From contig CDPCPM010000020.1 of the NCBI GenBank assembly GCA_976551045.1, positions 1,984,001 through 2,048,000 of the forward strand: DNA of 64,000 nucleotides. The letters run 5' to 3'. This DNA comes from Glaucostegus cemiculus (lineage: Eukaryota). Position 1 is the stretch's first letter. The number at the start of each line of letters is the position of its first letter. The position numbers were made by a program, and so were the translations under genes. Positions 14,715 through 60,179 of this stretch are shown here, in pieces. The notes below the pieces were generated by a model that was not told the DNA's origin, made no database searches, and worked only from the letters and a program-made list of their open reading frames with translations.

Positions 14715-15345
14715 CTCAGCAAGATTTTCCCAAATGGAATGGTCATTTTTACATTTGAACATTCGCTTCTGGAGTCCCTTGAATGAAATACACACCATAC
14801 TTTCAAAAAACCCCGAATTCATTATGCGCTGTTATCTAGGTGCCCTGGATGGAATTCACATTATTATTTCAAGGCTCCCTGGAATGCAAACAGTACTTTG
14901 ATTTCAATAGTGTCTGAAATGAAATGTACACTGTCATTTCAGGATTCTCTGGATGTAAGATGCTTTGCTATTTCAGGATTCTTTAAAATGCAATTTGCAT
15001 TGTAATTTCAAGGTTCCCCATAACACAACATGCACCCTAGTTCCAGGATTCCCTGGTCGGAATGTGCACTGCTATTTCAGGATTTCCCCAGAATGCCGCG
15101 TGCTCTGTAATTTCAGGATTGGCAGGATGGAATACACTGTTATTTCAGGACTCCTAGAATGCAGGAACTATTCCTCTCTCAGGTCTCGCTAGATGGACGG
15201 CGCGTTGTTCCAGTCCCTGGAATCTGTATTTCATGGTTCCCTTGAATACACTACTACCGTAACATCAGAATTCCCTGGCACGTAATGCACGCAGTTATTT
15301 CAAGACTCCTTGGATAAACATGATAGTGCACTGTTTCTTCAAGAT
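14715..15345 (+). repeat. Degenerate ~35-bp tandem array (~18 units)
   Basis: ATTTCA-like anchors at 14866, 14901, 14936, 14970, 15005, 15040, 15074, 15110, 15142, 15176 ... 15297. Consensus about ATTTCAGGATTCCCTGGAATGCAATGTGCACTGYT. Confidence 0.85.
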
Positions 15346-17119
15346 CAAGAAAGAAACATTCATTTATCTGCAAACATTCAAATCCTTGATTTCAAAATGT
15401 ATGCAGTTGGAACTGCAAAAAGTGAGAATACATTTTTTTTTTGGGGGGGGAGCTAAAGCGTCTAATCCCACTAAATCTTCAACGCCCGAAATAACTAGAT
15501 TTTTTTCTCACTTCTTCAAGTGTCCAACTGAACAAACTTCGGCCTTCCAGAAAATCACAACATTTACACTCACCGAAGGTTTGTCTTGCCCGCCCTGGTC
15601 GGTTAAGTGACTTTGACCTTTCCAGTCTCGGTCACTGAGGGGCACTTTTATTAATTTGCATTTCTCAACGCTGGTCCAAAGTGAAATCGATTTATCTTTG
15701 CTTTTATCTTATGATATATGAGAGACGTTATAACAAAACGATAGCTTGCTATACTAAAAGACGTATTGCCATACGTGAAAATCAAACAATCTTCAAAAGA
15801 ATAGGGACTGTGCCCATAAATGCTGACGTACACATCACAAAATACGCAGAAGATGGCTTAACAGAGTGAGGCATATTCAGTTATAATTAAATGGCAGGCA
15901 GGACAAACTAGGCATTTTATTTACACCTCATCCGATCCATCGTTTGCTTCTTTCGTGTCCATTAGCACCCTCTTTCACCTTGTGCTGTCATCCCTTTTCT
16001 GTCATTTACTCGTTCCAGCAATTTACCCAGTCACCTACCTTGCCTTTTGTTCTATTATCTGCATTTTAAAGCCTGTTTAACTTTCTTTTCCCAGTCCTAA
16101 GGAAAGCTCATTGACCTGAAACTGTTTCTCTCTCCACAGACACTGCCTGACCTGCTGCATGTTTCCAGCATTTTCTGCTTTCATTTCAGATTTCCAGTAT
16201 CGGCAGTAATTTGCCTTTGGAGATTTGAAGTATGTGAAGAGATGATTTAACCAAATTCATTATGGAGCACATGAAGTAGTCTAGACCTGCTGGCAGCAAG
16301 ACTGAAACAACATATAGACACAGGATGATATGGCAGGCAACATTCACACTACAAAAGTGCCAGGCAATCTCCAAAAGTGAGTCCAACTATTCACTCTTGA
16401 CATTGAATGGCATTACCACTCTGAGTCTCACACCATCAACATCCCGAGGGTCACTATTGACGAGAAACTCAACTGAATCAACCAGATAAACACGTGAACT
16501 ACAAGAGCAGGTCAGAGTCTAGGGATCCTGCAGTGAGTGACTCACTCCTGACATCCCCAAAGACTTTCCACAAATCAGGAGTCTGAGGGAACACTCTCCA
16601 CTTGCTTGGATGAGAGGTCCAGGCACTCCGACATCCCCTCCCGAATCCACAGGCTCCATTACAACCGGGAAACGGATCGCCATTCCCTCATCATCACTGG
16701 GTCTAGATACTCGAACACCCATCCTAATGCACTGGGGGAGCACCTTCACCAAAAGGTCTGTAGTCAACAAATTGGCTCAGCACCACCTTCTCACCAGCAC
16801 GGGCAATGAATGGTGGCCTTGCCATCGAAACCCAGGTCCTAAAAATTGAAAGTAAATATAGAGAGCATTTAACAGAACACAGTGTGGAGAATTTGTATGG
16901 ACATGAGGATGGTCATTCTGTGGTACAGGAGACCATTCAAGTATGGTAAGGGGAGCAGTGAAGAGTAACATGGTAGTGGGTGGGGACAGTAAGTCAGGGG
17001 GAGAGATACTGCCCTCTATGAACATCAGCGTGAGTCCCACAGGTTGTATTTCATGCCCAGTGCAAGGGTTAATGTCACCTTCTTGGAGCTTGAGAGGATC
17101 CTGGTGTAGGAAGGGAAGA

Positions 17120-18174: not shown

Positions 18175-20490
18175 AATAACTAGAGAAAAAGTACCAGGCA
18201 AACTAATGGGACTGAAGGCTGACAAATCCCTCGAACCCAATAGCCTACATCCTGGGATCCTAAAAGAGCTGAATGCATTAGTTGTGTTTTTCCAAAATTC
18301 CAAGGATTCTGGAAAAGTCACAGTGATTGGAAAACATCAGATGTAACACTGCTTCTCAAGAAAGGAGGGAGAAAATTTAGAACAACAGAGCAGTTAGCTG
18401 AACAACATTTATCAGGAAAATGTTAGAATCCATTGTTAATCACAAGATCACAAGATCACAAGATAATGGAGCAGAAGCAGGCCAGTCGGCCCATCGAGTC
18501 TGCTCCAAAGGGAAGGGAAGGTGGGGGGGGGGGGGAGAAAAAAAAACCTACTATTCTAAGTCCAAATCCCTGCCTTATCTCCATATCCCCTGATACCTTG
18601 ACCAATTAGATATCTATCTATTTCCTTCTTGAATATCCCCAATGATCTGGCTTCCACTGCTCTCTGTGGTAAGGAGTTCCACAGGTTCACCACCCTCTGG
18701 CTAAAGAAATTCCTCCTTATCTCTGTTGTGAACCTGCTTCCTCTAATTCTAAGGTTGTGTCCTCTAGTCCTGGATTCCCCCACCAAGGGAAACAGCTTGA
18801 CCACATTCACTTGATCCATTCCTTTCAACATCTTGTACGTTTCTATTAGGTCCCCTCTCATTCTTCTGTACTCCAACGAGTACAGTCCAAGTGACGACAG
18901 TCGCTCGTCATATGTAAACTTTTTCATCCCAGGAATCATCCTAGTAAATCTCCTCTGAACCCTCTCCAACATCAGCACATCCTTCCTAAGGTATGGGGCC
19001 CAAAACTGCACACAGTACTCCAAGTGAGGCCTCACCAGTGCCCCATATAGCCTCATCAACACTTCCTTGCTTTTATATACTATACCCCTCGAAATAAATG
19101 CCAACATAGCATTCGCTTTCCTTACTGCCGATCCAACCTGGCGGTTAACCTTTAGGTTATCCTGTACGAGCACCCCTAAGTCCCTTTGTACTTCTGTGTT
19201 TCCAATTTTATCTCCTTCTAGATAATAGTCTGCCCTTCCATTTCTACTTCCGAAGTGTACAACTGCACATTTTTCCACGTTGAACCTCATCTGCCATTTC
19301 TTCGCCCATTCTCCTAGAATATCCAAGTCTCTCTGTAACTTTCCTGTCTCCTGTGTCTCAAGTGGATTGCTAAGAAAAGAGTTTCAGTGGACTAAACTGG
19401 TTTTATGAAAAGGAAATGAGATGTAAGATACTTATTACAGTTCTCTGAGTATGTAACTAGCAGAGTCACCAATGGGAGCCAGTTGGCATAGTGTATTTTG
19501 ATTTCTAAAAGGTATCCAACAAGGAACTACAAAAAAAGGTTACTGTACACGATAAGGGACTACGAATTGAGGATTTGTTTGAGAGAGAGTAAATATAATG
19601 TTTAGGTCAGCAAACTATAACTAGTGGGGTGCCGTGGAGATCAGGAGCTCAGCTATTTACAATCCACATTAATGACTCAGATGAAGGGACCAAATGTAAC
19701 ATATACAACTTTGCTTCCTAAACAGAGATATGTGGGACAGTGAACTGTGGAGAGGGCAAACGAGTCAGCAAAAGGATATAGAGGGGTTAAATACATTGGC
19801 AAAAAGATGGCAGATGGAACTCTGAGATTATCTATTTTTATAGGAAGAGACATAAAAAAATCAGAATATTATTTTGACTGCTGGTGTTCAGAAACATCTG
19901 GATGTTCTCATGCCAGAAATGCATAAAGGTAGCACACAGGTCCCAGAATAATCAAGGCAGCAAATGAAATGTTGGCCACTATTGCAAAGGGAATGAAGTA
20001 CAAGAGATAAACACTCTTGCTGGAACTGTACAAGGCGATGGTGAGACTACACCTGGAGTACTCTAGGCTCCTTATTTGAGGAAGGAGAATCTTATCTCAG
20101 TGGTGGTAGCAAAGATGAAATAGACTGATTCCTGGGGGAGCCTTTGAGAAAAGATTGAGCAAAATGGATTTATAATCTCTGAAGATTAGAAGAATGAGAA
20201 GTGATCTCACTGAAACATAAGATTTTGAGGGGGTACAGCTTTGGGGATTTTTGCCCTGATGAAATGGTCTAAGTTTAGGGGGCATGATTTGAGAGTTAAG
20301 CATTGGCCACTTGAGATGAGGAGAATTGTCTACATCAGAGGACTGTGAATGCTGAGTCACTGAGGCTGAGGGACATAGATTTTTGGAGTACAGGGGAATC
20401 TAGAGTGATGGGGATCCGGGAGGTAAATGGTCTTGAAGCCAAGGATTGAATCCTCCTCAAGGGACTGTACGGTTAACACATAAGGTCATA
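18175..20490 (+). mobile_element. Old, heavily mutated CR1 (RT region), host of a younger insertion
   Basis: ggactgaaggctgacaaatccc, aagaaaggagggaga, cagctatttacaatccacattaatgac, gtgagactacacctggagtac, agaagaatgagaagtgatctc. Confidence 0.75.
18439..19350 (-). mobile_element. Young 5'-truncated CR1 LINE with uninterrupted ORF2 C-terminus
   Basis: 256-aa stop-free ORF (WQMRFNVEKC, RDLGVLV, LYGALVRPHLEYCVQFWAP, RRMRGDLIETYK, RNFFSQRVVNLWNSLP) and (ATCACAAG)x3 tail at 18439-18462. Confidence 0.93.
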
Positions 20491-22400: not shown

Positions 22401-24297
22401 GAATTGTTATCTGAGTTATGTGAGATTTGGTGTAGGTTTCAATGGATCAGCAAGTTTACTTCTGACTCAAAGGTCATTGTAAGAGGAAAGACTTTTGAAT
22501 CATCCAGTACCAATACCGGGGATGAAAGAGCTATTCCACTGGGACAAGTTCTTTTTAAGCCAGCTGGGACCAGCGTCCTGGCAAATCTGCTAAGGCAGTG
22601 GGCAGGGCTTTAAACAAGTAAAGGAAAAGTGGGCATGGGGGTTTCAAGAGGAGGTTATAGATTTTAAGGAAATGGATGAGGCTATAGAGAAGAAGGATTT
22701 GAGTGACGATAATCAGAGTGTGATGGAGGGACAGCCGGTTTAACAGGAATGCTGCATCAGTAAACAAAGTCAATTCAAGGAAAAACGGTAAGAAGTTAAA
22801 ATGAATCCTCTCATATTTGAATGCATGAAGCATTTGGAACTGATGCTCAGATGGCATAAATAGAGAAAAATGTGTTTGACCTAACAGCTTTTACAGAAAA
22901 GTGGTAGCAAGGTGACCGAGGAACTGGCATTAAATACTCCAGGGTACTTGGCACTTAGAAAGGGTAAACAAGATGGGAAAAGAGATGGCAAAGACTTGAT
23001 AATACAGGATAAACCACTGAGGAATAATCTTGGCCCAGAAGAACAATAATAGAATCCATATTGGTGGAAGTAAGAGATAATGTCGGACAAAAATTACTGA
23101 TTGGAGAGGTTTATGGAAATAATACAATTGGAGAGAGAGTATTAATCAAGAAATAAGAATTGTTTCTATTAAAGGTAAAACAATATTGTGGGGGACTTTA
23201 ATCTTCACATAGATTTGCCAAATCAAATTTGCAAATATAATTTGGAGGATGAGGTCTGAGAATGTTGTCAGGGCAGCTTTTGGAACAGTATATCTTAGAA
23301 CCAATTAGACAATAGGTTGTCTTAGATTTTATTTTGTATAGTAAGATTGGGTTAATTAGTAATTTCATAATAAGGAGTGGAAAGGTGAAAACAATGCAAC
23401 AGAATCTTAAGATAAAGGTCAGTTAAAGCCTAGAGTCTTAAACCCAAATAAAGTCAACTAATAAAATTGAGGGGTGCACTGGCTAAGATATATTGGCAAC
23501 TAGTTTCAAAGTTTTGCTGGTAGATAAACAATGGCACATTATAGAGAAATCTCTCCACTGAGAAATTAAAAACTCCATAAGGCAAGTGGTCCATCAAAGG
23601 TTAACTAAAGAGGTTAAAGATAGTAGTAGGTTAAATGAAAAGGTTTATAACGTTGCCAAGAGGAGCTGTAGGACTGGGATAATTTCAGGAAGCAACAGTG
23701 AATGATCAAAACATTCACAAAGATGGAAAAAAATACATGATGAGATTAATTTAGCAAGAAATATAAAAAGATTATCGGAGCTACATGGTGGCATAATGGC
23801 ACAACAATTTGGTGGCAAAAATAAATGTGTGTCCCGAAGAGACATTGACAGGAGAAATTACATTGGAAAATAAAGAAATGGCTGAGGCATTAATCACATT
23901 TTTTATCAGTTTCACTGCAGAAGACACAATAAATGAGGGTCTAACGACAGCAAGGAACTTAAAGTCATCAAGGGGAATAAAACCAGATTAATCCAATCCC
24001 CTGGACTGGAGGACCTGCATCCACTTTAATGAGGATGTACCTAGCAGGGTGGATAAGAGGGAACCTGTAGACGTAATATATCTAGGTTTTCATAATGCAT
24101 TTGAAAAGATGCCATACAAAAGGTTGCTACTTAAAATAAGGGCTCATTGGGCTGAGGTTAAGATACTAAAATGGGTAGAGGATTGGGTAGACGATGAACA
24201 GCAAAGAATAGGAATTAATGGTTTGTTTTCAGGCAGACAAACTGTTACGATTGAAGTGCTACAGAAATCAGTCCTAGGCCTTCAGGTATACACAATT

Positions 24298-24544
24298 TTT
24301 TTTTTATTTACAGCATGGTAACAGGCCCTTTCGGCCCAACGAGTCCGCGCCGCCCATTTTAAACCCACAAATTAACCTACCCGTATGTCTTTTTAGAATG
24401 TGGGAGGAAACCGGAGCACCCGGAGGAAACCCACGCAGACAAGGGGAAAACGTACAAACTCCTTACAGTCAGCGACGGGAATCGAACCCCGATCGCTGGT
24501 GCCGTAACAGCGTCGTGCTAACCGCTACGCTATCGTGCTGCCCG
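24298..24544 (-). mobile_element. Young V-SINE (HE1-like)
   Basis: gtgggaggaaaccggagcacccggaggaaacccacgcagac core, tRNA B-box (gggaatcgaacccc on +), CpGs intact, putative TSD CAATT (24293-24297, 24545-24549). Confidence 0.9.
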
Positions 24545-24654
24545 CAATTCATGTAATGACATCAGAAAAAAACAGATTGTAATATATTTAAGTTTGCTAC
24601 TGATATAAAGCCTGATAGGAAAGTCAGTTGTGAGAAGGACATGAAGGGTCTACA

Positions 24655-25085
24655 GTTTCCCCTTCTATAACTTTTTTTTAAATTTAGAGAAACGGAGCTG
24701 ACGACATTATATTGTTCTATTTCTATTGAAAATTTTAGCCCAGTTTTTTTTTCCTTGTTTTGTTTTTTTTTCTTCTTTTTTTTAAATTCATTTTCGGTTT
24801 AATTTACTCTATATTATTATGATTTTTTAAAAATTGATTTGGGGTTTTTTTTTGCGTTTTTTTTCTAATTATATAACAAATCTTTTTCTTTTCTATCTTT
24901 CACATTACACTTATGAACCGAGAGATTGTTGTTACTATTTCTTTTATATATATCATATTTTATTGCTTTTTTTTAATGATTACCTACAATTTACTTGATA
25001 TTTCTATAATATATGTGTAAACATTGTTGTTATATATTTTAACCTGTAATGATTTATCAATAAAAAAGATTGAAAAAGAAAGAAA
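24655..25085 (+). mobile_element. L1/Tx1-type LINE 3' UTR insertion
   Basis: T-rich body, AATAAA then GAAA-type tail, exact 12-bp TSD GAAGGGTCTACA at 24643-24654 and 25086-25097. Confidence 0.8.
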
Positions 25086-27499: not shown

Positions 27500-28030
27500 G
27501 CACAAGTGGTGAAAAACAGTGGTTGTAGCATTGATTTCAGTGGATCATTGCTTTTCACATTCTGCCATTCTGAAGAACCTCCATTTCCCAGAACAGAATT
27601 TGTTCCATCCTTTTTGAACATTCACATAACATTACCTCCCTTTTCTATTATAGTGCCTCTTCTGCCTCTTTCCCAGCTTCTTTTAGTATGCATGGATGCA
27701 ACCTTGGAATCTTATCTTCTTTGTTTGTCTAGTTTAACAAGTATCACCCTCCTTTCAATCTAAAATGTCTTGATGTGTTTTAATATTTTCAAATGTCCTG
27801 TCGATTTTGTTAATGCACCGGTGAAAGCTGAGACTAAGTACCTTTTCGATACTTTTGCCATTTTATTGAGTTGTCCATCATGTGAGTTCATCTTGTGCAT
27901 TCTTTAGTCACCCTGTCCCTATTTTAATAGTTCTTTCGTAATTTATACTGCTGTAGAACACGTTCCTATTTATTTTTGCATTGGCCAATTTTATTTGATG
28001 TTCCATGAACCCTTCTTGAATGTTATCGCA
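27500..28030 (-). mobile_element. Decayed CR1 fragment abutting the mip promoter
   Basis: gtgaaagctgagactaagtacc...ttttgccatttt mirrors aaatggctgaggcattaatcac...ttcactg of the plus-strand CR1 at ~23875-23920. Confidence 0.5.
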
Positions 28031-28149
28031 TTTTGACTTACTTCCCGAGAACGGAACGTACTGCAGACCGAGGATGGTGGAAACGGAAATCATTAGAATA
28101 TGCCTCCTGCCCCGGGATGAAACAGTTAAATGTAATGACAAACTAGCTA

Positions 28150-28200
28150 AGTCCCTCCCCCAGATTCAGAGCCCCCTATAAATACTTCATTCTGAGCAAT
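28150..28200 (+). promoter_or_regulatory. mip core promoter (C-rich box + TATA)
   Basis: TATAAATA at 28177-28184, ~120 bp upstream of the ATG, preceded by CCCTCCCCC. Confidence 0.7.
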
Positions 28201-28301
28201 TAAATTTGGGGAAAACGTTTGAGGAGCCGGGAGACAATTTCATCTTTTTTTAAGAATTTTCTGTTATTTTGTAATAGTCTGCTTTTTGGAAGATCAGGAT
28301 C

Positions 28302-28661
28302 ATGTGGGAGCTGAAATCCATCGCCTTTTGGAGGGCAGTGTTTGCAGAGTTTTTTGCCACCATGCTCTTCGTGTTTTTTGGACTGGGCTTTACTATGCGA
28401 TGGTCTCCGGGCCCCGTGAACGTGCTGCTGGTTTCTCTGGGTTTTGGCTTTGTCCTAGCTGCCCTGGTACAGGCGGTGGGGCATGTCAGTGGAGCGCACC
28501 TCAACCCGGCTGTTACCTTTGCTTACCTGCTAGGGGCGCAACTGAGCATGTTCCGCTGTGTGATGTACATAATAGCTCAGCTCCTGGGGGCAGTGGCAGG
28601 GGCAGCTGTGCTGTATGGGGTCACCCCTCCTGCTGTACGGGGCAACCTAGGGCTTAACACG
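28302..28661 (+). CDS. mip: Aquaporin-0 / lens major intrinsic protein, exon 1 (codons 1-120)
   Basis: [29 protein letters not shown]...[13 protein letters not shown]...VRGNLGLNT with first NPA. 360 nt; donor ACG|gtaaat. Confidence 0.97.
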
Positions 28662-30799
28662 GTAAATATGTTGGCAAATAGCACGCTACGAAAAAAAGTT
28701 AGTGTGAACTTGTACAAACTAAAACCTTGTTTTGAAAACCAATATTAAAGTTTGAAGCAAAATGGGAAATGTCCTGGAAAATCAATGTGTTAAAAAATAT
28801 AGTAACAAAGTTAGTTGGTAAATATGACGAGTGTAAAGGTGTAGAGACCAAAAAAGTAACATTTAAAGGATATCTTTATAACAGGCTTGGGATATAAAAT
28901 ATATTGGAGAATGAATTGAAGCAACATTGATAGCTTTTAATAAGTGTTGGGTTATATTATTCGGAAATTATTAATTTGCGTCCAAATTCTAAGACCGTCT
29001 AAACTCTGGGACTTAAACATTTACCCAAAGTTAAAAGCCAGGGGTGAACTAGGAACTAAATGATATTGCTTTCGCGGGGAGTTAAATGGATTAAAATAAA
29101 CGATGTCGTTCAAAGAATATGAATCATTTCAAATTGAAGATTCCTGTATTATTAAACCCTTCAAAACTGGACCGACAGAAAGCAGATCTGATTCTTTTAG
29201 ATTTTGTACATACAAATACAGATCAATTGGAAGTAACGTGTTATTCTAAAGTACTTATCAGCGGTTTATTCCTAGAACCATTTACTTGTTGCTCCACCAT
29301 AATTTAAGATTAATAAATAATATAGCAGGGAACGAGAGTCTAGAATTTTCCCGCGTAGAATCAGATCGTCAATTCCCTGAGATTTATTGATCGATGGGAA
29401 TGTCAAGTCAGATCGTGTGTACAACGTGAAAATTGAGAGAAAAAACTTAAATGGGGCATAGGGTTAATGGAAAAGTTTTCAATTTTGTTTCGGTAAGGCT
29501 TTACTTCATTTAGTGTTTCGCGCGGTTTTCAGAAAGTAGCCGCATAATTTTTGAAAACTGCTTTTAAAAACTTTCTGAGGCCGTCTCAGAGGGTTCGAGT
29601 TTGTACAGAGCTCTGTACAACACCGACTTAATCTACAGACCAATGTGACAAAGGTAGGAAAACCATGTGTTTATAATGCAAGGTCTGGTGAATTTCGGAG
29701 GGTTTGTTGCTTTAGTTTGATTGGTTCTGAACTGTATTTATCCGGATAACCCAAAGTGACAGATTTCGATTCAAAGATTTACCGTGTTCATTGGATTTCA
29801 AGCGCTAAATCATGTTACAAGGGAGTTAGTTTCTGTTTCAATTCGACTTCAACATTTTTAAAAAATGGGCATGGTTTTACTTGGGTTTTCGATTTTACCG
29901 TGGGCGTCCTAACTTAAGGAATTTTATTTTAAAGTTCTGTGAGCTAAATCTCTCAAGAGATGAACAGAACATTTTCAGAGATTTGAAAACATCTGGAAAT
30001 GTGTCGGCAGCTTTATGCAACTTTCAGTTGGCTCGGGAATTAATGGTTACAGTGAGCTTTCGGTTTTCTGAACATTTTGTTCTGCTTGTAAGTTGCTGGT
30101 GTGAAAATTGGGGAACCACCTTTAAAAGGAGAGAACGCAAAGCTCGCTCGGCTGTGAATTCACGGACGTTCTGCAGACACAGCTCACTGAGTTCAAAAGC
30201 TCCCCGGGTACAGTGTGCGTGTTTGCATTCTCAGCTGCAGTGATCGTACTCTGGCTCTGGGCTGCAGTAAGCCCCATACCTTTCAAATTCAATGACATCA
30301 ACGTGCGAAAGGATGCCCGTAGTCAAAAGGTAAATCACCTTTGTGATTCGGGAGACACGTTGAGGAGTCTGAGACCTCCCTCTAACGTGACGGGTGTTAA
30401 ACCTACAGGTATGTGGGAATTGGATTTTCATAAGGGACGGTGTAAGCACTCCTTCCAATACTAAGTCTGCTAGTGAATCTAGACACGATATTATGCGGGG
30501 ATCAATGTTTTGTTGCCCACTGTTTACACCACAAATTATATGCTTCGGTCACCTTGTCGAGAGCTGGCATCGCGATCGGAATAAGTTGTGAAAAGCTCGG
30601 ATCGTTTCAAATAGAATTACATGTTGTTTTAGGCTTTGTGGTGCTCCAGAGCATGGAACACGCGCCATAGGTGTGCTACCGTTGTCCCAATCAATATTTT
30701 ACGGTTGGAAATGTGTACCTAGCTAGCAGCTATCGCTTTTAGAATTTGCGTTTGATTTACGCCAAAATAAAATCTGCAATATGAACGGTTTCTGACAGG

Positions 30800-32025
30800 G
30801 CTGGTTGATGTCTGTGACTCAGGTCACTGTGTCGGGATTGCGGCCACATTCCAAAGCATACAGGTGGCAAAAAAAAACCCTCACTTGCAACCGAGACCCT
30901 ATCGCTAGCGTGCCTCAGTTTCGCTGTCAATTCTGGCGCGGTAAACCGATCCCCTGCGCTATTTGGAGAGCAGAGTTCTCAGTGTGACCTGGGCCATACT
31001 TCTCACTGAAAACAGAGGGAACAAGCCACCGATCTCGTTCCTCTTTAGGCACTGCCGCAGTGTGCAAAGTATCAGAGCAAGCTAGCTGGTCACTGATGGC
31101 GTTGTTTGTGGGATGTTGCTGTGCGCAAAACACCACGAAAGCAAACTGGTAATCGATGTTGTAGTTTGTGGGACCTTCCCGTGTGCAGTGCATCAAAGCA
31201 AAGTAAGGGCTGGGCACGGTGTTGTTACTTGTGGTGTCCTGTTATGTGCAAAGCTTCGCAAGAAAGGACTAAGTGCCAATTGCTTAAAATATTTAATGGC
31301 TCTGACTGTGCGCAAACGCCAGCAAAGCAGACAAGGCTACCGTTGTTGCTTGCGGGATCTCGCTGAGCGCAGAACATCGCCAAGATGCATTAGGTGGCCA
31401 TTAATTTTTAGCGACATTTTGTTGAGCGCAGAACATCGCCAAAACTGACCAGGTGGCTATTAATTACACGTTAAAATGGGATCTTGCTGTGCGCAAAATA
31501 TCGCTAAAACGGACTGAGTGTTCATTATTTTTTGAGACGTCTTGCTGAGCGCAAAACCACTGCCAATAACAGTCTATGTGGTTATTGAACTTATTGTTGC
31601 GTGCGGTATCTTGCTATGTGTAAATCGCCACCAGAGCAGACTAGACTGTCATTGGTCTAACTTCTGCACAAAACAGAGTACCTCATCTCGAAAAGCAGCG
31701 CTGCCTGTCCTTAAATATACTGTAGGGCTGTAGGATCTCGGCTGCAAGTTACCATCAGAACACTGTCTGGTCACTGAATCATTGCTGACTTTGGGATCTT
31801 TCTGTGTGCGTGAAACTAAAACCAATTAAGAGATAATTGATCTCATTTCTACTTGCAGGAATCCTGCTATGCACAAAATTTTGGCAAAAGACTTTGTACA
31901 TTGACGTTTTTGTTCTTTGTGGAATCTAGCAGAAATGTGATATTACATTTATCGAATGTTGATTGAAGTCTGACTACTGCATTTTGAGAAACAACTGAAA
32001 AGCATGATAACATTACAGATACATT
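30800..32025 (+). mobile_element. Deu-domain SINE with internally amplified core
   Basis: SINE-like 5' part (gcagagttctcagtgtgacctgggccatacttctcactgaaaacaga), then the array, then a weak tail. Confidence 0.6.
31005..31935 (+). repeat. Degenerate ~62-bp tandem array (~15 units) in mip intron 1
   Basis: Recurrent (gt)gggatcttgctg(t/a)gcgcaaaa anchor at ~31064, 31125, 31185, 31248, 31312, 31369, 31428, 31493, 31551, 31620, 31668, 31744, 31808, 31873, 31929. Confidence 0.88.
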
Positions 32026-33933
32026 CGAGTATCACTTGTGAAACAATGCAGTTCACTTGCATCAAACACTATCTGCTAATGATACTCTACAAAGATGTAA
32101 TGAGGAATAGTATAAGTATTTTACCCAAACTTTGCCTATTGAGGCATTGAAACAGTTAAACACATGATTCACATACAAACTCATTACCATTACCTTAGAG
32201 GGCTACCTAAACTTCAGTTAGTGGTGACACACATACATCTAGTTCTTGGAAGACTGGTGGTGGTTAATTCCCTACTAGTCTGTCAAAACCAAAATATAAT
32301 TCAAAACAGCTAGTCAGGACTGCAGTGTATAACCTGTCACTAGCCTTCCTAGGATTAAATATACAGTTCCCACTAGGGACTAGAAGCAAAATTCACTATT
32401 TGCTTGACAGGGCACAGTTGTATATTTTACTGTATTGTTGTACTATACAAAATACTGCATTGAAACCAATGTATAATCCAGCAACAGATCTTTAAGACTT
32501 GGACACTTTTCAAGATATCACAGAAAGTTCATTGAAATCCATTATTTTTTAACCAAGGATCAAACACATGGTTCAGCACAAACTAGGTATAAAAACTGCA
32601 AATTCTCCCCAAAGTACTTCTGATCTGAAAAGTTAAAATGAAGTAATAGTAGCACATTAAAAATACTGTTTAGTTTTAGCCATAAGCTGCAGACAGAAAT
32701 GATACATAAGAAATATGTTTTGCCCTTCTAAGCAGGGCAAATTGTCTGCATCTTTGAATAAGCATATGCATCTTATGTATCAATTCCTCAATTGCTTAGA
32801 GCAAAGCAAATTTCACTTTGCTTCTAACCTTGTGCCATTACCATGCATTCAGATTAATTCAGTAAGGCATGGTAGAATATTTCCTACTCCACCTCTAGTG
32901 TCTCTCATCCTCAAGAAAGGCCCATCTACTAGGAGATCAGAAAGGACAGGTACTTAAATATAGTAAAAGTTCTCAATTTCTTGGACATATTTCATCATTA
33001 ATGTGATTTAATTATGGGATGTTATAAGTTTCCCCTATGCTGAACAAAACCCCAGTTTATCATTAAATGCATTATTCCAATATTGATTTTCAGGGATAGA
33101 TATTGACAATTTGAGGAAGGTCATAATTGAACTCTTTTCCCAGTAGAAGGGAAAAAGCAGTATTTTTAAAATATTTACTTTTGTCCCAAATATAGCTTCC
33201 TTCTCCCTGAAATCATGACTCATTGCAGGCTATTAGCTTTCCTATCTGAAACACATGAACAGTCTCAATCCAATTCCACATGAATATGGTTCCACATCTT
33301 TGAACTACACTTAAGAACTAGTTGCTGTTTTCATTGCAATAGCAATGCAAAGCTATTGTATGGAAAATGAAATAAAAGCACTTGAAGGTTAAGTCATACT
33401 GTTGGGCAAAGTACAGATGACTTTGGTTTTACTCAGATATTTCATGGTTTCAAAACTGGAGCAACTCCATTTTCCATCCAGCAAAGAAATCCCTCAAACT
33501 GATGAACACTAAAACACCATTACACATATTGTTTGTTCCTACTTATTGGCTATTTGATTCACAAAGAAGGGTGGGATTGAGGTGTAATGGAGATTAAGAG
33601 GAAAATAAATGAGTAAATTTAACTAAATTGGGTTATTTCATTAAATTAATTACCAAGTTCCTGAAGTAATGACACAATAATGATCACTCACTAAGCCATT
33701 CATTTCTAAGTTGTGTATCATTTTAAGTCACGTAGCACTCAGTAAATCTGTGGTTTGAGATGGCATTCAAACACTCTCAAGTTCAGATCCAGGAATGACT
33801 GTAGAGTCTAACAGTCATGTGGTTTGTTGATTTTTAGTAGCAGACAAATACACTTGCCTGTAAATACACCCCTCTATATTCACTTTTGGTCTATTGCTGC
33901 CATTTCTAATAGTAATTTTTTTTTATTCTTTAG

Positions 33934-34098
33934 CTTCATGCTGGAGTGGGTATTGGCCAGGGCACAGCTGTGGAGATATTCCTTACTCTTCAGTTTGTCC
34001 TCTGTATTTTTGCCACAACAGACATTCGCAGAAATGGATTCATGGGCTCAGCAGCTATGATCATTGGCTTTTCACTCACTGTGGGTCACTTCTTTGGG
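33934..34098 (+). CDS. mip: mip/aqp0 exon 2 (codons 121-175)
   Basis: ttttattctttag|CTT...GGG|gtaagt. 165 nt encoding [55 protein letters not shown]. Confidence 0.96.
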
Positions 34099-35431
34099 GT
34101 AAGTCTACAAATTTCCACCTCATTTGTCAAAGGACTAGGGTTAAGTGTGGAAAATATACCCAGCTCTGGACTAAAAGGTAACAAGCACTCTCCCAACAGT
34201 TGAGTTGCAAAATACAACTCTCTGTAGTGTTGCCCCATCCAGGCTAGGAGGATCTCCAGTGTTTCAGTTTACCTTGGCTACAATACAACCAAGGTGCTAG
34301 AACTGGCTGTGGCCTCTCAGAGGAGCAAGGGTTTTAAATTAGATGTTGATCTTATACTGCTGATCATCATTTAACAATTCCTGTTGGAAAGTACAAACAC
34401 ATAAACATGAAGCAAAGACAGACACCACCACTACCTGATCACTGTACATGTATCAGCCTCTTTAAGGCACCAGCTTTAATTGATTATATATACCCTATCA
34501 ATCCATACATCATTGCCTCCTTGGAAAATTTACCCAAAATTAGAATGATAATTAACCTGAGTTCAGGTCATTGCAAAAGGTACAACTGAATCTTCATTCA
34601 GTTCAACTGGCATTAATGGGGTCCTTGCCACCTAGTCATGCAACCAGCTTCATTCCTGTTTAATGTAGACGGTTGTGGACCAACAACTGGGAAGTGAGAT
34701 TAACCCAACAGTCTGCCTTTGGCCTGCATGAACCACCTCCTATGTTGTAAATTTGTAAGTTCTTATGTTTCTGTGAGCTTCACACCAGGTCCAGAGCAAT
34801 CACCCTTCTGGGCAAAGGGCTACTTTATTATGGAGATCAGAGATCCTCAGATATAAATCGGATTCAGATTTCCATTTTGGGTGTTGACTGCTTGGCACTA
34901 TTGGAGGGCAAGATTTGGCCAGTTCCATGGGTGTTAGAAGAGAAGAGGTTCTGCAAAGGTAAGGCTTGAATTATTTTTGAAGGTTACTGGTGCCCACAAC
35001 AATAACCTGGACCACTGATGTCCCATCTTGCCCTGCCCACCCCTCTTTGATTGCTCCCCGTATCTAGCTCATCCTGCTGCCAGGTCCAGGAGTTTTTTTG
35101 TTGTCTCAATGAGTTGTTGGGTTGGCTAGTTTGGTATTTTGCAGCTCTCCTGAAGAATATAATTGAAGCCAAAGACTCAGAAACACAGCCAGAAAAGTCA
35201 ATTGTGATCCTGTGTGAAGAATTAGGTTTAATTAGCAAATGGCTTTATGTTCTTTCATATTTTCTTGGATAGTACTGACTATTCACAGAAGTTTTAAACT
35301 CATGGCTCTGAATACTCAAATGATGATGAGTGGTAATCAGTACCATTTCTTTTGAATTGTCTGTTAAAACTTTTTATTCATGCAATTATGTCTAATTGGA
35401 ATAATACGGTACTCTCTTCCATTTTCTCCAG

Positions 35432-35512
35432 CTTCATTACACAGGATGTGGAATGAATCCAGCAAGGTCCTTTGCACCAGCTGTACTGACTAGAAATTTT
35501 GGAAACCACTGG
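35432..35512 (+). CDS. mip: mip/aqp0 exon 3 (codons 176-202)
   Basis: ttttctccag|CTT...TGG|gtaagc. 81 nt encoding [27 protein letters not shown] with the second NPA. Not in the ORF track. Confidence 0.96.
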
Positions 35513-36635
35513 GTAAGCACAAACTGAATTCAACTAAAACCGAGTGAGCAAGTGAACAAATCTGTTTTACAAAAGCACAAAAACATCAAAGATGCTTGTA
35601 AGATACACCAACATTTCTTCAATCACCACACATAAACAATCAAGTTAAGAACTATGGGGGTTTTGTGCCTCAGGGATTTTGTATAATTAGTTACTGATTG
35701 ATGACAGATTCTTCAAATACAGCTAAACAAGTTCAGGTATAATGGGGACAATGTATTTAATTATTTCAGGTGGCTTTGTCCCAGTATGTCTGATCATATA
35801 TTCTGCTTACTTGTGAAGCACTTACAAAAGGTCAAAGGTTGCCCATAATTTTTGAAGAGGATCTGTCAGATCAGAAAATTCAAAACATCTGCTGAGCTTG
35901 TACATGCTAATTAATGGCAAGCTTTGCCCATTTTTAATAAAGCATATGCTTTTTAGCATGCCCTTGATTCTGAGTAATCTGAAAAACTAGTTTAGCACGT
36001 CAAGTGGCCTCTTCCTGGTCTACAGGCTTTCAAAAATAGACATACCTGAATTAAAAAGCAAAATCTTCTATAATTCAGCAGAAATTGACTATGTTAGCAA
36101 CCTCATTTAGAAAGGGAATAAGGAAGTATGTGATGGGAACTGGAAATCTCTCACTGAACACTAAAGGGTGCTTTTAAGTAGTTATTTGCTCTCTAACTTT
36201 AAAAAAAAAAGTTCCATAGCAGCAGCAGCAAGGTGGATCCTACTGCAGAAATTGTAACAGGCGAACATTCAACAATGCTGCAAGTATATATCAGGAATCT
36301 GAAAATCTTGCTCTGGGTGAGGGAAGGTATGAGGTATTGTCCTGGTTTCCACAGCCACCTCTGTTCAACTTTCTATCAAACTGATGTGGTTATATAGCAT
36401 TGCTGCATTTTGCCAAACTTTGTAAGATATTTTTAAGCTACTGGGCACTGTGTTGCTTCTGAACATCAAGCCCTGTGAGTCAAAGTGAATTAGCTCATCA
36501 CAGCCAGGTGTCAAATATCCTCAGACTTGGGATGAAAAAAAAAGCCAGCATTTCTGCTCCTATTCACTGTTGGTGACCCTTGTAGGAAAGTGTACATGGG
36601 CAGATACAAAAAGTCCTGTACTTTTGATCTCTGGG

Positions 36636-36775
36636 TGTAAAGCACTTTACAGTCAAAGTACTTTTAAAGTGTAATTACAGTTTAAAAGTACTTTGACTGT
36701 AAAGTGCTTTACAGTCAATACTGGCTCAATTTCTGATCTTATAAATAATTACAGTTATAAAATCAGAAATTGAGC
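36636..36775. repeat. Two adjacent inverted repeats (39-bp arms with no loop; 21-bp arms with 10-nt loop)
   Basis: 36636-36674 vs 36675-36713 (1 mismatch); 36724-36744 vs 36755-36775 (1 mismatch). Confidence 0.95.
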
Positions 36776-37090
36776 AAGCAATTTATACACAGCTAGCTCC
36801 CACAAATAGCAAAATGATAATGACCCAGGTATTGGTTAATAGTGATGTTGAAATTGGCCTGAACAGCTGGGATAATTCCCCTGCCCTTTTTCTTTTTGTA
36901 AAATGATATGGATTTGAAAGAGCAGATGTGGCCTCATCTGTTCCTTCAGATGAGGTGACGTCTCACCTAGTAGAGCACCCCCACAAGTACTGCACTGGAG
37001 CATCATCTAAAATTTTCATGCTCACATCTCCTGAGTGGAGCTTAAACCCACTATCGTCCAGAGGCAAGGTTGCTACCAACTGAGACACTT
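36640..37090 (-). mobile_element. Deu-domain SINE (SacSINE1-like)
   Basis: aaagcactttacag...gctcccacaaatagcaa...gtactgcactggag...gagtggagcttaaacccac...gctaccaactgag, the reverse of 675-1055. Confidence 0.75.
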
Positions 37091-37354
37091 CTAACAGTAA
37101 GTGGAAATGTGTATTTTGGATAACATTAAGATCTGGCTCATCTGTAATGTTTCCCCGATGAAATAGCTAAATTGCTCAGATTCATGCATTAAGATAGTTA
37201 CCTGGGTAAGGTTCAGGTAGGATGTTAGGAACAATGGAGCCATTGGTGCACTGGCTCAGCCACAAGCCTTAGTAAAGAAAAATGAGGGAATGCTCAATTC
37301 TAATTAGTTAACACTATTTTGTTTCTCAATTATGTTACTTCTATATCTTTGCAG

Positions 37355-37540
37355 GTATACTGGGTAGGCCCCCTGATAGGAGGTGCTATTGCAGCTCTGC
37401 TGTACGATTTCATCCTGTTCCCCAGGATGAGAGGTCTCTCAGAGAGATTGGCTATTCTTAAAGGAGCTCATCCCCCAGAAGCTGATGGACAACAGGAACC
37501 CCGGAGTGATCCCATTGAACTCAAAACACAAGCCTTATAA
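37355..37540 (+). CDS. mip: mip/aqp0 exon 4 (codons 203-263 + stop)
   Basis: tatctttgcag|GTA. Encodes [10 protein letters not shown]...[16 protein letters not shown]...[10 protein letters not shown]. 360+165+81+186=792 nt gives 263 aa, the length and C-terminal TQAL of AQP0. Confidence 0.96.
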
Positions 37541-46923: not shown

Positions 46924-48126
46924 TCAGTGAGGAATTGCTGTTATTCTCATACTCTGTGATGCAATTGGATAAGTAACCATTGGTGTGGTGGCATGGCTTA
47001 TGGTGATTCCTGGCAGCGCTTGTGCAATTGATACTGTCACTGGTGCAACAGAGACAGCCACTGGGGCCATGGAAACTGGAGGTGCCATTCCCTGGGCAAT
47101 GGTCTGGGCAAGTGCCGCAGGGAGAGAAGCAATTTCAGGATTAAGATGCTGTGCTGTTGGTGCAGCATTGGTAGGTGGTGCAGCAGAAGCTGCAGCAGTT
47201 GCCACTAGATCTTGCTGGGTGACAGGTCGCGGTTGAAGTGCTTGGCTACTCAAAGTGGTGTGAGTCTGTGCTACACCATGGTTGTAATTGGTCAGTGTAG
47301 CCACAGTTGGTGCTGCCAGTATTTGCTCTGTCGCTGTGGGAGTGGAGGTCAGCGTCACCACCTTAGTTTGGTTGCGAAAATGTGCGTTTTGCTCCAAAAG
47401 CACCTCATTAGTTGCCATCAAATTTGAGATCTGTTTTTTGAGTTCTTCAACACGCTTTCGAAGCATCAGATTCTCCTCTTCTAAAAATCTATAGTCCACT
47501 GGACGCGAGTTTGAGATACTAAAATCATAACTTTCAAATCGCAAGCCATCCACTCTTCTCCTCTTTAGTATATGGTCATAGTCAGTATAACGATCAGTGT
47601 CATAGAGGTCATCAAATGGGTCATATCGCCGCACTACAGGAGAAAGCACTTGGTCTCGTGCCAATCTCTCTAAAGTTCTGTTTTCATACTCATATTCATC
47701 ACGTTTTAAGTGCCGAAATTTACATTTAGATCCTCTTTGACAGTCCCCTTTCAGGTAATCTCGGCAGATTGGAACCTCACCTTTTTTAAAAGAAAGGTCA
47801 GAAGGTGAAAGGCCAAGACCCATGGCCACTGTAAGGCGCAGACGTGGGGGAAGCTCTCCTGATTTTTTGTAATGTTCCTCATCTTCCTTTGTCCCGTGAA
47901 TAAACTTGCAGTTGATACGAGTGCACTCCTTGTTCTGATAATCATGGCAAAAGACAAACTCATTTTTTTTAACACCCAAGTCGGACACCTCATTAATGTC
48001 GGGGTGGTAGAACTTGCAGCGCTTGCCACGTTTGCAGACATTGCGCAGGAAGTCACGGCAAATATCATCTGAGCTGTGGCCAGCCTCGTCATTACCACTG
48101 TTAAATAAATTATCTTTATCCGGCAT
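46924..48126 (-). CDS. zc3h10: Zinc finger CCCH domain-containing protein 10, single coding exon (400 aa)
   Basis: ATG at 48126 (the ORF track's 48132 start is GTG). MPDKD..., three CCCH fingers (CRDFLRNVCKRGKRCKFYH, CHDYQNKECTRINCKFIH, CRDYLKGDCQRGSKCKFRH), KRRR basic patch, coiled coil LEEENLMLRKRVEELKKQ, end ASQSMRITAIPH. Acceptor gattttctttttcag| ahead of 48171. Confidence 0.95.
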   Translation of the reverse strand: MPDKDNLFNSGNDEAGHSSDDICRDFLRNVCKRGKRCKFYHPDINEVSDLGVKKNEFVFCHDYQNKECTRINCKFIHGTKEDEEHYKKSGELPPRLRLTVAMGLGLSPSDLSFKKGEVPICRDYLKGDCQRGSKCKFRHLKRDEYEYENRTLERLARDQVLSPVVRRYDPFDDLYDTDRYTDYDHILKRRRVDGLRFESYDFSISNSRPVDYRFLEEENLMLRKRVEELKKQISNLMATNEVLLEQNAHFRNQTKVVTLTSTPTATEQILAAPTVATLTNYNHGVAQTHTTLSSQALQPRPVTQQDLVATAAASAAPPTNAAPTAQHLNPEIASLPAALAQTIAQGMAPPVSMAPVAVSVAPVTVSIAQALPGITISHATTPMVTYPIASQSMRITAIPH

Positions 48127-51058
48127 CTTCACAGACTATTATTGTTTCTCAGCAACTGTACATTAAAACATCTGAAAAAGAAAATCAAGGTATGTCTTTA
48201 CAGAGAAGGAGGAATTAACCCACAAAGTAAGTGTTACTTGAACCACTGCATTTTGAGCTCAGCAAGCTGAACAACGTTTGCGTGGGAAAAATAAAGATTT
48301 CTAAAGGTGTGCGTCTGGTGTCAGCATCAAATATTATAAGGTTAGTTGTAATACACTTCCCTTTGAACAGGCCCCATTGTATCAGTGACATAACTTCATT
48401 CCCCAATAACTTATCCCTGAAGGCTAACACTGGAAATGATGGGTGCTATTTTATTTAGTAAATTTTAGATTTATTTTGTGCAGTTACTTATGCCCATTAA
48501 GATTTTGTTTAAAATTTGCCAAACTTATTTTGTTTTGAACATCACAACCAAAAGAGAAAAAGAGTGCTCCCTTCATTACTGTGGGATAAACAACTGCACT
48601 TACATGAATGCCAACATTTCCAAGATTTTTGGAAAAGTAGTTTTTAGAATAAAGATTTTCACTGGGAATTCTTTATCTCCACTGAATGTGTATGCATGCT
48701 TTCAAATGATTCAGCCAGTAATCACCATGTCTGTGCCCCCTCACACCTCCTGAGATACTGGCTTGATATAGTTTTAGGAGAAAATGTTTGCATCTTCAGC
48801 CAACAAATATTTCCTGGTATGTTGGTGGCAAGTCCAAAGATGGTGCAAAATTGATATAATGAATTACAATGAGGTCAGCTTGTACTGATTTAATGGCAGT
48901 TGCCCTTAGGCCAAAGGAAAGGGGGAAAAATAAACATAACCAGAGATCCCACTTCTGATTTGAACACAGTGACTTCTGCTGGAAAGTGTATATCTGCAGA
49001 CTAGGGCTTCCCAAAGTATTTTCCAATACTTTATTTCCATTTTAATACTTGAAATTTCACATGACCCCAGAAATCAACCAAAACAAAACAGTAATCAAGC
49101 TGTTTGCACAAGTTGCAATGTGATGATAACCAAATAATTTATTAAAGCAATGCAGTTTAATGGATAACTATTAACTACAATTACGAGGAATTACAGTTCC
49201 TGGTAATGGACAACACAACTTGGATGAGGACCTTGGCACCCAACCAATGGCTGGGTGGAAGCACTGTAGGGACAGGTCTCTTTCTCTCTCACTTTTTTCT
49301 AGGGGCTCTACACCAGTAGTCTCCAAGGGAGAAAGACATGGAGTACACCACCATTACCTACAGTTGTCACATGTCAGCAGAGTAAATCATTAGTCCTTCA
49401 CTCCCATGCCTCAAGATTAATATATCTTAACAAGACAGCAGGAGCTGCAAGGCATAATCTGACTGCTTTCTAACATTGGCCAAGACCAGTATCTGTGACA
49501 ATGTGATGGGCTTAACATGGTCCATGGATCATGACTCCAACAACTCATGCTACAAACAATTTGGGGTCATGACACAGAATTTGGAAAGCACTATGTAGAG
49601 TTTGGTCATACGTAGGCTGTGGTCAGATGTGGTGCCACCCACTGTAAAAGGACCTACCAATAATTACTCATCTTGGCTCACGTACAAGGAAACCCATCGC
49701 CTGGGAAGATGAGACAATCGGAACTTTACCCCAGGAAGAGTCTGCACTTTTAGAAGAGAGAGACAAAATTGAGCATGGGATCCAATATTTGCAATAATGA
49801 TCAAGAAGTATTAACCTAAGGAAAAAAAGTTACAGCATCATGGAAGTAGAAATGCAATGAAAGACCAAAAGATGAAAATGGTGAGTAACAGAAACATACT
49901 GATGAAAATAATAATGGAAATAAAAATGATTACCTTTAGGCATTATTTTGAATTTTTGGTGTATCAGTTGTTAAAATAGTGGGTACATCTGATAGTAGAT
50001 AAGAAAGTGACTTGAAGTCCCAGTTGCTCAGTCAAACAACTGAACAAATGCATACAGCTGAAAAGTCAAGGTAATTAAAACATTCTGGGTGCTAAATATA
50101 TAAGCTTCCTTCCTCCATTTAATTATAGACACCCAGGAAGCTCTAATTAATATGATTGAATTGGGGCAAGTAGCAAAAATTGCTGACTTACTCAATGGAT
50201 TTCAAACTGGTATGATGAATAAAATGTGGCATCAATAGCCCTCTACATATCTGCAGACACAATGCATCAATTTGAACTATCATGATGCCAAAGTATCTGT
50301 AATGTAAACTGTACTGTGGAGGGTTAATTTTTGTAAATGAAATATTTTGAAAAGGCTAATAGTAGGTGTGGGGATCCTGAAGGTAGCTTTACTTTGCGGA
50401 CATTGAGTACCACACAATTTTTGCTTACTACCTGAACCACATGTAAATTGGCATGGGGTCAGTAAGATCAGAATTCAGAGAAAAAGGACCTTAGATCTGA
50501 AATTCAAATAGTAGAACCAGTTTGGACAGACCCAAGAAACACAAGGGGCAGAAAATATTGATAAGAGTTGTCTATAGCCCTCAAACAGGTGTAGCTCTTA
50601 CTTATTCTGCTAGTTACAAATAGCTAACAGATTTGTCAAATGTGATTTCCCTTTCATACATGCACCTTGACTCTGCTCAATTATATTATCATCATGTGTG
50701 CATTGTTACCACATCCTTCGTAATAGATTCTATTATTTTTCCTACCACTGATGTCAGGCTAACTGGTCTGTAATTTCCCATATTCTCACTCATTCCTTTT
50801 TTAAATAGTGGGGTTATACTAGCTACCTTCTACCTTGCAATGGATTGTTTTCAGGTTGGGACACTGCGAGTAATGGTGTACCACAGGGACTGGCGCTGGG
50901 GCCCCAAGTGTTCAGCTTCTATATCAATAATTTTGAAGAAGGGACCAAGAGTAATATACCCAAATTTGCTAATTATACAAAGTTGAATGGCAGTGGCAGT
51001 TGTCAGGAGAATGCAGAGAGAGACTTCAGGTGATACAGGAATCTCAGTGAATGGGTAT

Positions 51059-58359: not shown

Positions 58360-59470
58360 GTCCTCCCAGACAAGAGCGACTTAGAACCAAAGAGCTGCGC
58401 TTCGAATGCTTAATTTCTTTTGATCATATTCACAATGAGATGAGGTACTTCAGACTCAAAATTGTGTAAACTGAATGCCCTAAAGACAAATTTTGAAATC
58501 AAACGTCCGAAAATATTGTAATGGAAAACAGTTCCGAAACACACAGTCGTTACCAGCTGCTGAGCAGATTGCCGGGCATCGACAGCTGCCTGCAGAGACG
58601 CTCCAAACAGCGTCTTCTCCGGTTGCTCTTGCCTCGGAGGACCTGAATCGAAGCTCGTCGTGCTTGGAGGACCAAGTGAGGGGGGAAAAAGGCTAAATAG
58701 TGTAAGTAAATGTGTTTCTTTCTTCTGTTCGTTATTTATCGAGTTTATTCCCAGTATTGGTAAAGTGAGGTTATTTATTTACGTCTTTAAAAATGCGAAC
58801 AATTTTTTTTTTGTTCATTTGCCTACTGGAATTTATGTCAATTTGTGTAAAGCACTTGAGGCCTAGGAGCGCAGTCGAAGCCTCGCACCAAGTTCGAGAA
58901 CTTTCCACCGCGACGCCACCAAAACTGTCAACATCCCGCTTTCGAGCGAGTCTCCTCACGGCGGTAGGCCGAGGAACTAGAACTGTTTGAGGGGAGATCA
59001 CGTCCAGTGGTTAGGTTAAAACTTACGGCCGTCTTGAAAGAATGGAATTGCGAATTCCGGACACACAAAAAGAAAATACACAATGTCAAAATGAAAGTCC
59101 AATGAATGAAACATGAAAGAATATCCAAACTGAATTTATAGATGTTTCAATCACGAGATTCCTACGGGATGTTAAAATTCTTGACTTAAAATTTCCGTTT
59201 TTAAACTAATTGAAGCCGTTTGCTCCAGAAACCGACTTCCTTTTGATATCGCGAAACAACGGTGTTGCCCACCTTCAACCAAATGGCTGTGCAGCATTTA
59301 GTGCCCCGGCTGGGGATGTCGGAAGGTTCCGCTGAGTGTGGGGAAAGAGATCATCGCAGTTCAGTCTGATTCACGATGCGTTGATGAAATGAAAGAATGG
59401 ATATCTTTGTCGTCCACCCTGGTGTTTGGAGAGTGAAGCTGAAACCTTCCCAGTCCATGTCGTGCAGTAC
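58360..59470. promoter_or_regulatory. CpG-rich promoter region, probably zc3h10 promoter and non-coding first exon(s)
   Basis: Marked local CpG retention. Housekeeping-type motifs near 59230-59325: ACTTCC (ETS), ATCGCGA (BANP-like), GTTGCC (RFX-like), AAATGGC (YY1-like). Minus-strand donors GCC|GTAAGT (59027/59026) and CTG|GTAACG (58554/58553). Nearest CpG island 5' of the zc3h10 coding exon. Confidence 0.7.
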
Positions 59471-60179
59471 TCATTCCGGTCGTTTTCAACCACTAAATCA
59501 ATGGAACTCAAAGTACATATGTACATGTGCTTCAAAAATAAATGTTTTAACCAGTTGACTTATAAAAAGAGTATTGACAACTGGTTTTTAAAATCTTATT
59601 TCCAAATGACTGTTACTATGATATTATTTACCATTTTCCTCCTTAGGTCACTGCATCTTTTGCCATTCAAGAGGCGTAATCAGCAAGGTTCACTTGGCCA
59701 CTTACAGGTATGAGGAAGGGCAAATGATCAGATTTTCTTTTCTCTTTGCTATTCTGTGAGGCAATAATGGATTATTATTTTGTGACCCCTTTCAGTTTGT
59801 GACTAACGTTGGCATCTCATGATATGAATGCTTTTAAAATTCCTCTCTACCCTGTCCAGTTTTGTTTCCTTAACCTTCCTAAAGTTGATGAAAAGTGAGG
59901 TATAGCCCACAGGCGGCACCATTTATTTACCTAAGAGTTTACCCATGTAATCATTGATAACCTAAGTGTAAATATTGAGTGCTACAGAGGTCCACAGCCA
60001 GAGTTAATCCTGCCCAGTGTCCTTATAGGTGTCAGTCTTAGGGTATAGGATGATAATTTGTGCCTTGTTGGTCAATACCTCATTGAGTGTTGCTTGGTGT
60101 GGCTCAGAATTTCTCTTTGTCCTGAATATTTCTGTCACACTTGCTGCAGATGAAGGCAGTGGTCTGAGAAGGTGCAAAA

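Follow-up and report, generated by a model that had tools for sequence, protein, structure and literature searches.

The first intron of the lens aquaporin gene mip/aqp0 in Glaucostegus cemiculus contains an old tandem array of SINE-derived units at the edge of a CpG-rich island, which raises the question of whether the array serves as a regulatory element or is a relic of its own amplification. An earlier note on the window (the whole stretch of 64,000 nucleotides analysed here, from a genome of 2.85 Gb) had proposed a cluster of transcription factor sites that might act as an intronic enhancer or island boundary. We consider it somewhat more probable than an even chance that the array is a frozen, largely neutral SINE-derived minisatellite. 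The features on which this assessment is based are listed in Table 1.

Table 1. Positions of the array, its surroundings and its relatives in the genome (window positions unless a contig handle is given).
Feature	Position	Strand	Remarks
mip/aqp0 exon 1	28302..28661	+	120 codons; Asn instead of His at residue 40
mip/aqp0 intron 1, host of the array	28662..33933	+	GT...AG; exon 2 and exon 4 frames
CpG-rich, low-GC island over exon 1 and 5' intron 1	28001..31955		o/e 0.45-0.98 by section
SINE body piece, extended 5' terminal	30941..31010	+	Profile positions 234-311; 57/67 identities, p<0.001
Array of 15 diverged units	31006..31935	+	Units of 48-76 bp, all copied from SINE profile positions ~314-380
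Eight TGCRCNC cores in units 1, 2, 3, 5, 6, 7, 8, 9	31060..31553	-	Predicted MTF-1 sites; 5' ends at 31066, 31127, 31187, 31314, 31371, 31430, 31495, 31553
Units 10-15	31556..31935	+	No intact MRE core, fewer CpGs
Ordinary single-copy SINE in intron 3, unit reference	36700..37101	-	E=6e-44
Sister array	C19:29241641-29242510
Sister array	C172:397933-398690
Sister array	C202:338135-338705
Sister array	C266:366874-368429
Sister array	C309:962950-963114
Sister array	C317:1653047-1653179
Sister array	C358:123026-123395
Sister array	C622:482966-483610
Sister array	C803:44195-44823
Sister array	C840:23615-23872
Sister array	C956:26046-30776

The host is a four-exon gene of the MIP family at positions 28302-37540. 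Its identity as AQP0/MIP is indicated by a Pfam MIP match and by exon 4, which matches lens MIP best (E=6e-22 vs 4e-13 for AQP5). The encoded protein has His122 and an Asn at position 40. A Pfam scan of 150 open reading frames, out of 195 of at least 66 amino acids in the window, gave no matches other than the MIP exons, a CCCH protein and, below threshold, one frame in the array.

The earlier count of about 15 diverged units of 48-76 bp in mip intron 1 proved accurate, the lengths of units 1-15 being 63, 61, 60, 63, 64, 57, 59, 65, 58, 69, 48, 76, 67, 62 and 58 bp. At lags of 55-67, the array scores 145 for periodicity, while 1000 shuffles averaged 45 and did not exceed 74. Of 300 other windows that were scored, the top three (143-152) start at 24201-24601, near a poly-T run at 24744. 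TRF, which had been suggested as a check, does not report the array because the units are too diverged. Their mean pairwise identity is 51%, with a maximum of 71% among units 7-9, and the unit tree is nearly star-shaped, with internal branches amounting to 11% of the tree length. The units are therefore old and diverged, as had been proposed, and the array at this locus is not homogenised. Outside the core, their identity to the SINE profile is 0.67, compared to 0.75 in a set of dispersed copies that is biased towards well-kept ones. This pattern suggests one early burst of amplification with a few later duplications and without homogenisation.

The origin of the units from a SINE is well supported. 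For 11 of the 15, the alignment to a single segment of a first SINE profile, built from 30 copies of this genome, reaches p<=0.01, and the HMM of the final profile, which has 507 positions and derives from 68 loci picked on three different motifs, places the repeated segment (66 bp) at positions ~314-380. A 23-mer based on the units has 178 exact matches in the genome in its YG form, and none as a reversed control. Together with the SINE body piece that leads into the first unit, these alignments support tandem amplification of a SINE segment. Other details of the earlier description need correction. The SINE-like head in front of the array is indeed SINE sequence over 70 bp, but it is body and not tRNA head; a tRNA head was undetectable before the array (p=0.48), and the 5' piece does not detectably reach the SINE 5' terminus. 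The weak tail reported behind the array was likewise undetectable (p=0.5-0.7). The same segment does occur once at about 36780-36850 on the reverse strand, as had been noticed, where it belongs to the whole dispersed element in intron 3. At the 3' end of that SINE copy, positions 36610-36760 hold inverted, partly duplicated SINE tail pieces.

The parent element is a dispersed, old SINE of ~460 bp whose 5' part is tRNA-like. Its profile contains a B box and a relaxed ARAGORN match without anticodon, and exact pol III boxes are present in only 3-4 of 100 old SINE copies or fragments. The parent is probably SacSINE1. In size and type, tRNA-like head and B box, it appears to fit SacSINE1 and the DeuSINEs of cartilaginous fishes as the accessible text of two papers describes them (PMC5499810, PMC4824008); the difference is that here only one segment has been amplified. 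Lying ~280-345 nt from the SINE start, this segment probably belongs to the vertebrate Deu domain of 330 bp (PMC4824008). It is outside the 124-258 core that lamprey and zebrafish have in common with SacSINE1 (PMC5499810, Table 1).

Genome-wide, the SINE 23-mer occurs 534 times exactly (356 CA and 178 YG forms), compared to 47 times for a 22-mer of the tail and 10 times for a 25-mer of the head side. A G variant is linked to CA among the 23-mer matches, while a T variant was counted by eye in 14 of 100 listed CA matches vs 41 of 100 listed YG matches. The linkage and the abundance of the 23-mer suggest either that the SINE has subfamilies or that this block is better kept. That CA forms outnumber YG forms was also considered as a decay bias that would point to selection, and was set aside as subfamily structure. 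Since decay looks symmetric in T-type copies, the array's ratio of ~5 TG to 1 CA is not significant.

Five other organisms have words in common with the region, and the contigs of four were compared; no RNA data set was listed as containing this stretch. Two relatives span the whole array in overlapping contigs (overlaps <31 letters), one spans most of it and one a part; in the two that span it fully, the unit number is likely the same, as judged from the contig sequences. Among the listed pieces, with straddling ones left out and the array taken as a whole, divergence is 86/1267 (6.8%) for pieces wholly inside the array and 306/4662 (6.6%) for pieces wholly outside (p=0.80). The array thus diverges at the rate of the intron, not below that of its flanks, and is therefore not constrained as a whole across species. 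Rates taken over whole pieces would miss a constraint limited to ~6 of the 62 bases in a unit. Inside the array, the relatives differ by indels of 2 and 4 bases, and two of them have ~30 gap letters in units 10-15. The array predates the splits from the compared relatives several-fold.

When the array was used as a DNA query against the genome, it matched only itself. Tandem patterns with intact CpGs gave 0 and 1 matches, the one being the mip locus, and the idea that the array is unique was overturned by patterns that tolerate CpG decay, which revealed that the segment also forms another array. When the upstream 12-mer was searched in tandem form, 110 matches were obtained (reversed control 0), and the 100 listed comprise 11 arrays and one non-array that was dropped. 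The genome search proposed in the earlier note therefore yielded at least 11 other minisatellites that have a 16-bp SINE block in common with the mip array, with the qualification that the block was ascertained on 12 of its bases. These sister arrays contain 3-79 motif copies at a spacing of ~27-92 bp and differ in their spacers. The four unqueried bases 3' of the 12-mer are kept in 9/11 sister arrays and the four bases 5' of it in 1/11; the T variant is present in 9/11 and in the mip array, compared to ~23-41% of the dispersed matches. A SINE-body lead-in like that of the mip array precedes 4/11 of them. As a single control, a 12-mer of the SINE tail has 10 tandem matches, none of which continues as SINE tail by eye, and the control and block 12-mers are intact in 2/71 vs 3/70 dispersed copies. 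Because the block seeds at least 11 other arrays and the tail control none, such SINE-derived satellites form a recurrent class, to which the mip array belongs as an old member.

The class spans a range of ages. Some sister arrays are 97-98% homogeneous, and the array C266:366874-368429 shows an age gradient, in which degenerate units of 31, 62 and 64 bp are followed by 21.7 copies at 98% and then by GC-rich units that run into a CpG island. Elsewhere in the genome, two related 31-bp minisatellites with a B-box-like piece lie 320 kb apart on opposite strands (C286, at 177 kb and 497 kb).

The closest known systems are the squamate satellites sSat1-3 (Vassetzky et al. 2023, PMC10702118), which, according to the accessible text of that paper, likewise repeat a single internal portion of a SINE in tandem, have at one end a longer unit that matches the SINE (here the 5' piece), arose at independent loci with differing units (here at least 11 other arrays) and often keep their unit number at orthologous loci (PMC10702118). 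With units from a SINE portion, a longer terminal unit and several loci, the mip array has the architecture of this type. In contrast to the mip array, the sSats derive from another SINE family in another clade, and the word 'shark' does not occur in the accessible text (PMC10702118). The mip array also differs from them in its low pairwise identity and in its intronic position at a CpG-island edge, as do the sister arrays in having one 16-bp block in common among units of 27-92 bp (PMC10702118). Homogenised long arrays and a subtelomeric position are further traits of the sSat type; the absence of homogenisation at mip is a state that the accessible text allows for short loci (PMC10702118). 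A search of the openly accessible literature found no description of satellites from this SINE or block, and a full-text search with the letters of the 16-bp block, on both strands and in both variants, returned no occurrence.

We therefore favour, at the strength given above, a history in which one 66-bp SINE segment was likely duplicated locally, head to tail, into 15 copies during one old burst. The block, in its T variant, may have acted as a seed that favoured slippage or unequal exchange, and the setting could have been open, recombining, CpG-rich DNA or a protein that binds the block. For the latter, the PRDM9 motif in THE1 offers an analogy only: it is also a short retroelement motif that is linked to local sequence turnover where the surroundings are GC-rich, but PRDM9 targets erode quickly, as far as the accessible text describes them, while the 16-bp block is found both in very old and in near-homogeneous arrays (PMC5698624). 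Homogenisation would have stopped soon after formation, and the array has likely drifted since, without a sequence-specific job over most of its length. The block itself is not selectively kept in the mip array; its identity compared to the rest of the unit is 0.73 vs 0.66 there and 0.81 vs 0.73 in dispersed copies. If this history is right, one SINE block has seeded at least 12 arrays, from near-homogeneous to ~50% diverged, and would provide a natural age series of minisatellite birth and freezing. The 16-bp block would also be a concrete sequence for why the 'highly conserved domains' of SINEs persist.

Three observations sit uneasily with a frozen relic: the retention of one short motif described below, the coincidence of the island end with the array end, and the stability of the array compared to its surroundings. 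Concerning the last point, only one of the listed joints in the alignments with the relatives touches the array, a skip over the whole array supported by 22 letters in one low-depth contig, and none falls within it, while the flanks carry several indels of 41-66 bp.

The CpGs of the array, which the earlier note had singled out, are well retained (o/e 0.73 overall). However, this is not special to the units, as the unique intron upstream (28663-31005) has an o/e of 0.85-0.98. Because the array is no richer than this upstream sequence, its CpGs belong to the whole 4-kb island, and the array presumably kept them because it lies inside an island that is unmethylated in the germline. The o/e is 0.82 in units 1-11, falls to 0.46 in units 12-15 (31673-31935) and is 0.07 directly after the array. 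Units 10-15 are likely a methylated shore, which would have decayed at the island edge.

Within the units, the earlier note had named TTGCTG(T/A)GCGCA as the best-kept part. Its columns are indeed kept better than the rest of the unit (0.75 vs 0.61 in the array, compared to 0.63 vs 0.60 in 41 dispersed copies chosen without regard to the motif, with gaps counted as mismatches). What stands out is the 3' half together with the A's that follow, while the exact 13-mer is present in only 3/15 units. When substitutions alone are counted, most of the excess falls in profile columns 372-380 (0.83-0.92 vs 0.66). On the minus strand, these columns spell the metal-response-element (MRE) core TGCRCNC, a match noticed post hoc. 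TGCRCNC is given as the core of MTF-1, the targets of which carry MREs in multiple copies, in the accessible text of one paper (PMC4879176). Eight such cores fall within a 500-bp part of the array; the best other 930-bp stretch of the window has three (mean 0.47), and 300 dinucleotide shuffles gave a mean of 1.6 and a maximum of 7. The core is kept in 8/15 units, compared to 1.6-3.1 expected under neutral models, and the tolerated changes fall on its degenerate positions.

This retention is the basis of the main rival, an exapted metal-responsive enhancer, in which units 1-9 would have been kept as predicted MTF-1 sites at ~60-bp spacing, making mip or a neighbour responsive to zinc or cadmium. 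We consider it unlikely. The probability of at least eight cores on the unit tree is 0.002 at that spot (2 of 969; 2 of 990) and 0.002-0.07 when related units are merged into one, but it rises to 0.047 (46 of 969) or 0.069 (68 of 990) once all windows of this shape are admitted. TGCRCNC is intact in 2/40 dispersed copies (one misaligned copy dropped), a contrast that is inflated because of CpG decay in methylated copies and the apparent G/CA subfamily. The metallothionein promoter of the same genome has four cores within 75 bp, one of them nearly identical to the array sites and with similar flanks. In contrast to metallothionein MREs, however, the mip cores are predicted sites that lie in an intron, 2.7 kb away from the start codon, at even spacing and on one strand, and that were inherited from a retroposon (PMC4879176, for which the accessible text was compared). 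The site is ancestral in the SINE, and units 10-15 contain no core.

At the protein level, zinc modulates AQP0 in oocyte assays, as described in the accessible text of PMC2151666. His40 is necessary for this effect, and killifish AQP0 is zinc-insensitive (PMC2151666). The AQP0 encoded here lacks His40, and none of the 26 matches listed in a search for ZIP-family zinc transporters, from 89 scored candidates, lies on this contig. A link between MTF-1 and mip did not stand out in the literature searched. Exapted mammalian AmnSINE1 enhancers, as the accessible text presents them, resemble the mip case as DeuSINE-type sequences near a tissue-specific gene, but they are single copies under purifying selection, while mip has a tandem array without overall constraint (PMC4824008). 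The sister arrays are also informative: 9/11 contain 0-2 MRE cores, so amplification does not need them. If the array is the neutral minisatellite that we prefer, its eight cores would have been inherited from the SINE and have survived mainly by escaping CpG decay.

If the MRE cluster is functional, tandem amplification of a retroposon would have created a stress-responsive enhancer and given lens aquaporin-0 a new regulatory input; otherwise, the locus is an ordinary fossil repeat. We give a still smaller chance to the joint scenario, read from sequence, of a SINE that carries a 16-bp minisatellite seed next to an MTF-1 site and that at mip would have produced an eight-site metal-responsive enhancer, making transcription of the lens water channel zinc-dependent.

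Lower again we place a role at the island edge, in which putative zinc-finger protein sites, in the 16-bp block, the CpG-bearing core or both, would maintain the 3' border of the unmethylated island. The boundary proposed by the earlier note does exist insofar as the array forms the 3' edge of the island, and it is known in principle that tandem repeats alter transcription factor site density or island methylation (PMC12776774, accessible text). CpG-rich DNA immediately flanks 6/11 sister arrays vs 1/68 dispersed copies (p=1e-5; within-locus ranks p=3e-5), and the retention of the four 3' but not the four 5' bases, along with the prevalence of the T variant, is what a defined binding site would leave. 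However, the same kind of flank adjoins 11/30 unrelated minisatellites in the fetched loci, so the CpG link of the sister arrays may be generic, and the lack of selective retention of the block at mip also argues against this role.

The cluster of Maf half-sites that the earlier note had envisaged as a lens enhancer of mip is very improbable. The host is a lens gene and unit 13 has one TGCTGAC, but TGCTGA occurs only twice in the array, compared to 0.9 expected from the window rate, the SINE and most units carry the ancestral TGCTGT instead, and no full AP1/MARE core is present in the array. Consensus patterns for Maf, C/EBP, NRF1, AP1 and Sox were not enriched in the array. Least probable of all is a role at the level of RNA or protein, be it as a cryptic exon, a small ORF or a structured RNA of the intron. 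An open frame of 120 codons does overlap the array, but its sole Pfam match is below the cut-off, the relatives have the 2- and 4-base indels mentioned above, and the RNA folds no better than shuffles (z=-0.77).

Several further features were observed along the way. A three-exon metallothionein gene at C26:927490-928546 (-) carries a TATA box preceded by four MRE cores; a processed metallothionein copy without introns lies at C693:271744-271923. A 14-bp repeat at 30 kb of C364 belongs to a 3-kb locus with 15 MRE-like cores. In the window, a single 403-amino-acid frame at 46927-48135 (-) encodes CCCH zinc fingers according to the Pfam scan and is presumably ZC3H10. A 275-amino-acid open frame at 18559-19383 (-), which has no Pfam match, resembles what we take to be the C-terminal end of a CR1/L2-type LINE ORF2. 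Further CpG-rich stretches of the window lie at 15001-16000, 24001-25000, 47001-48000 and 58501-59500, with o/e values of up to 0.7-1.2.
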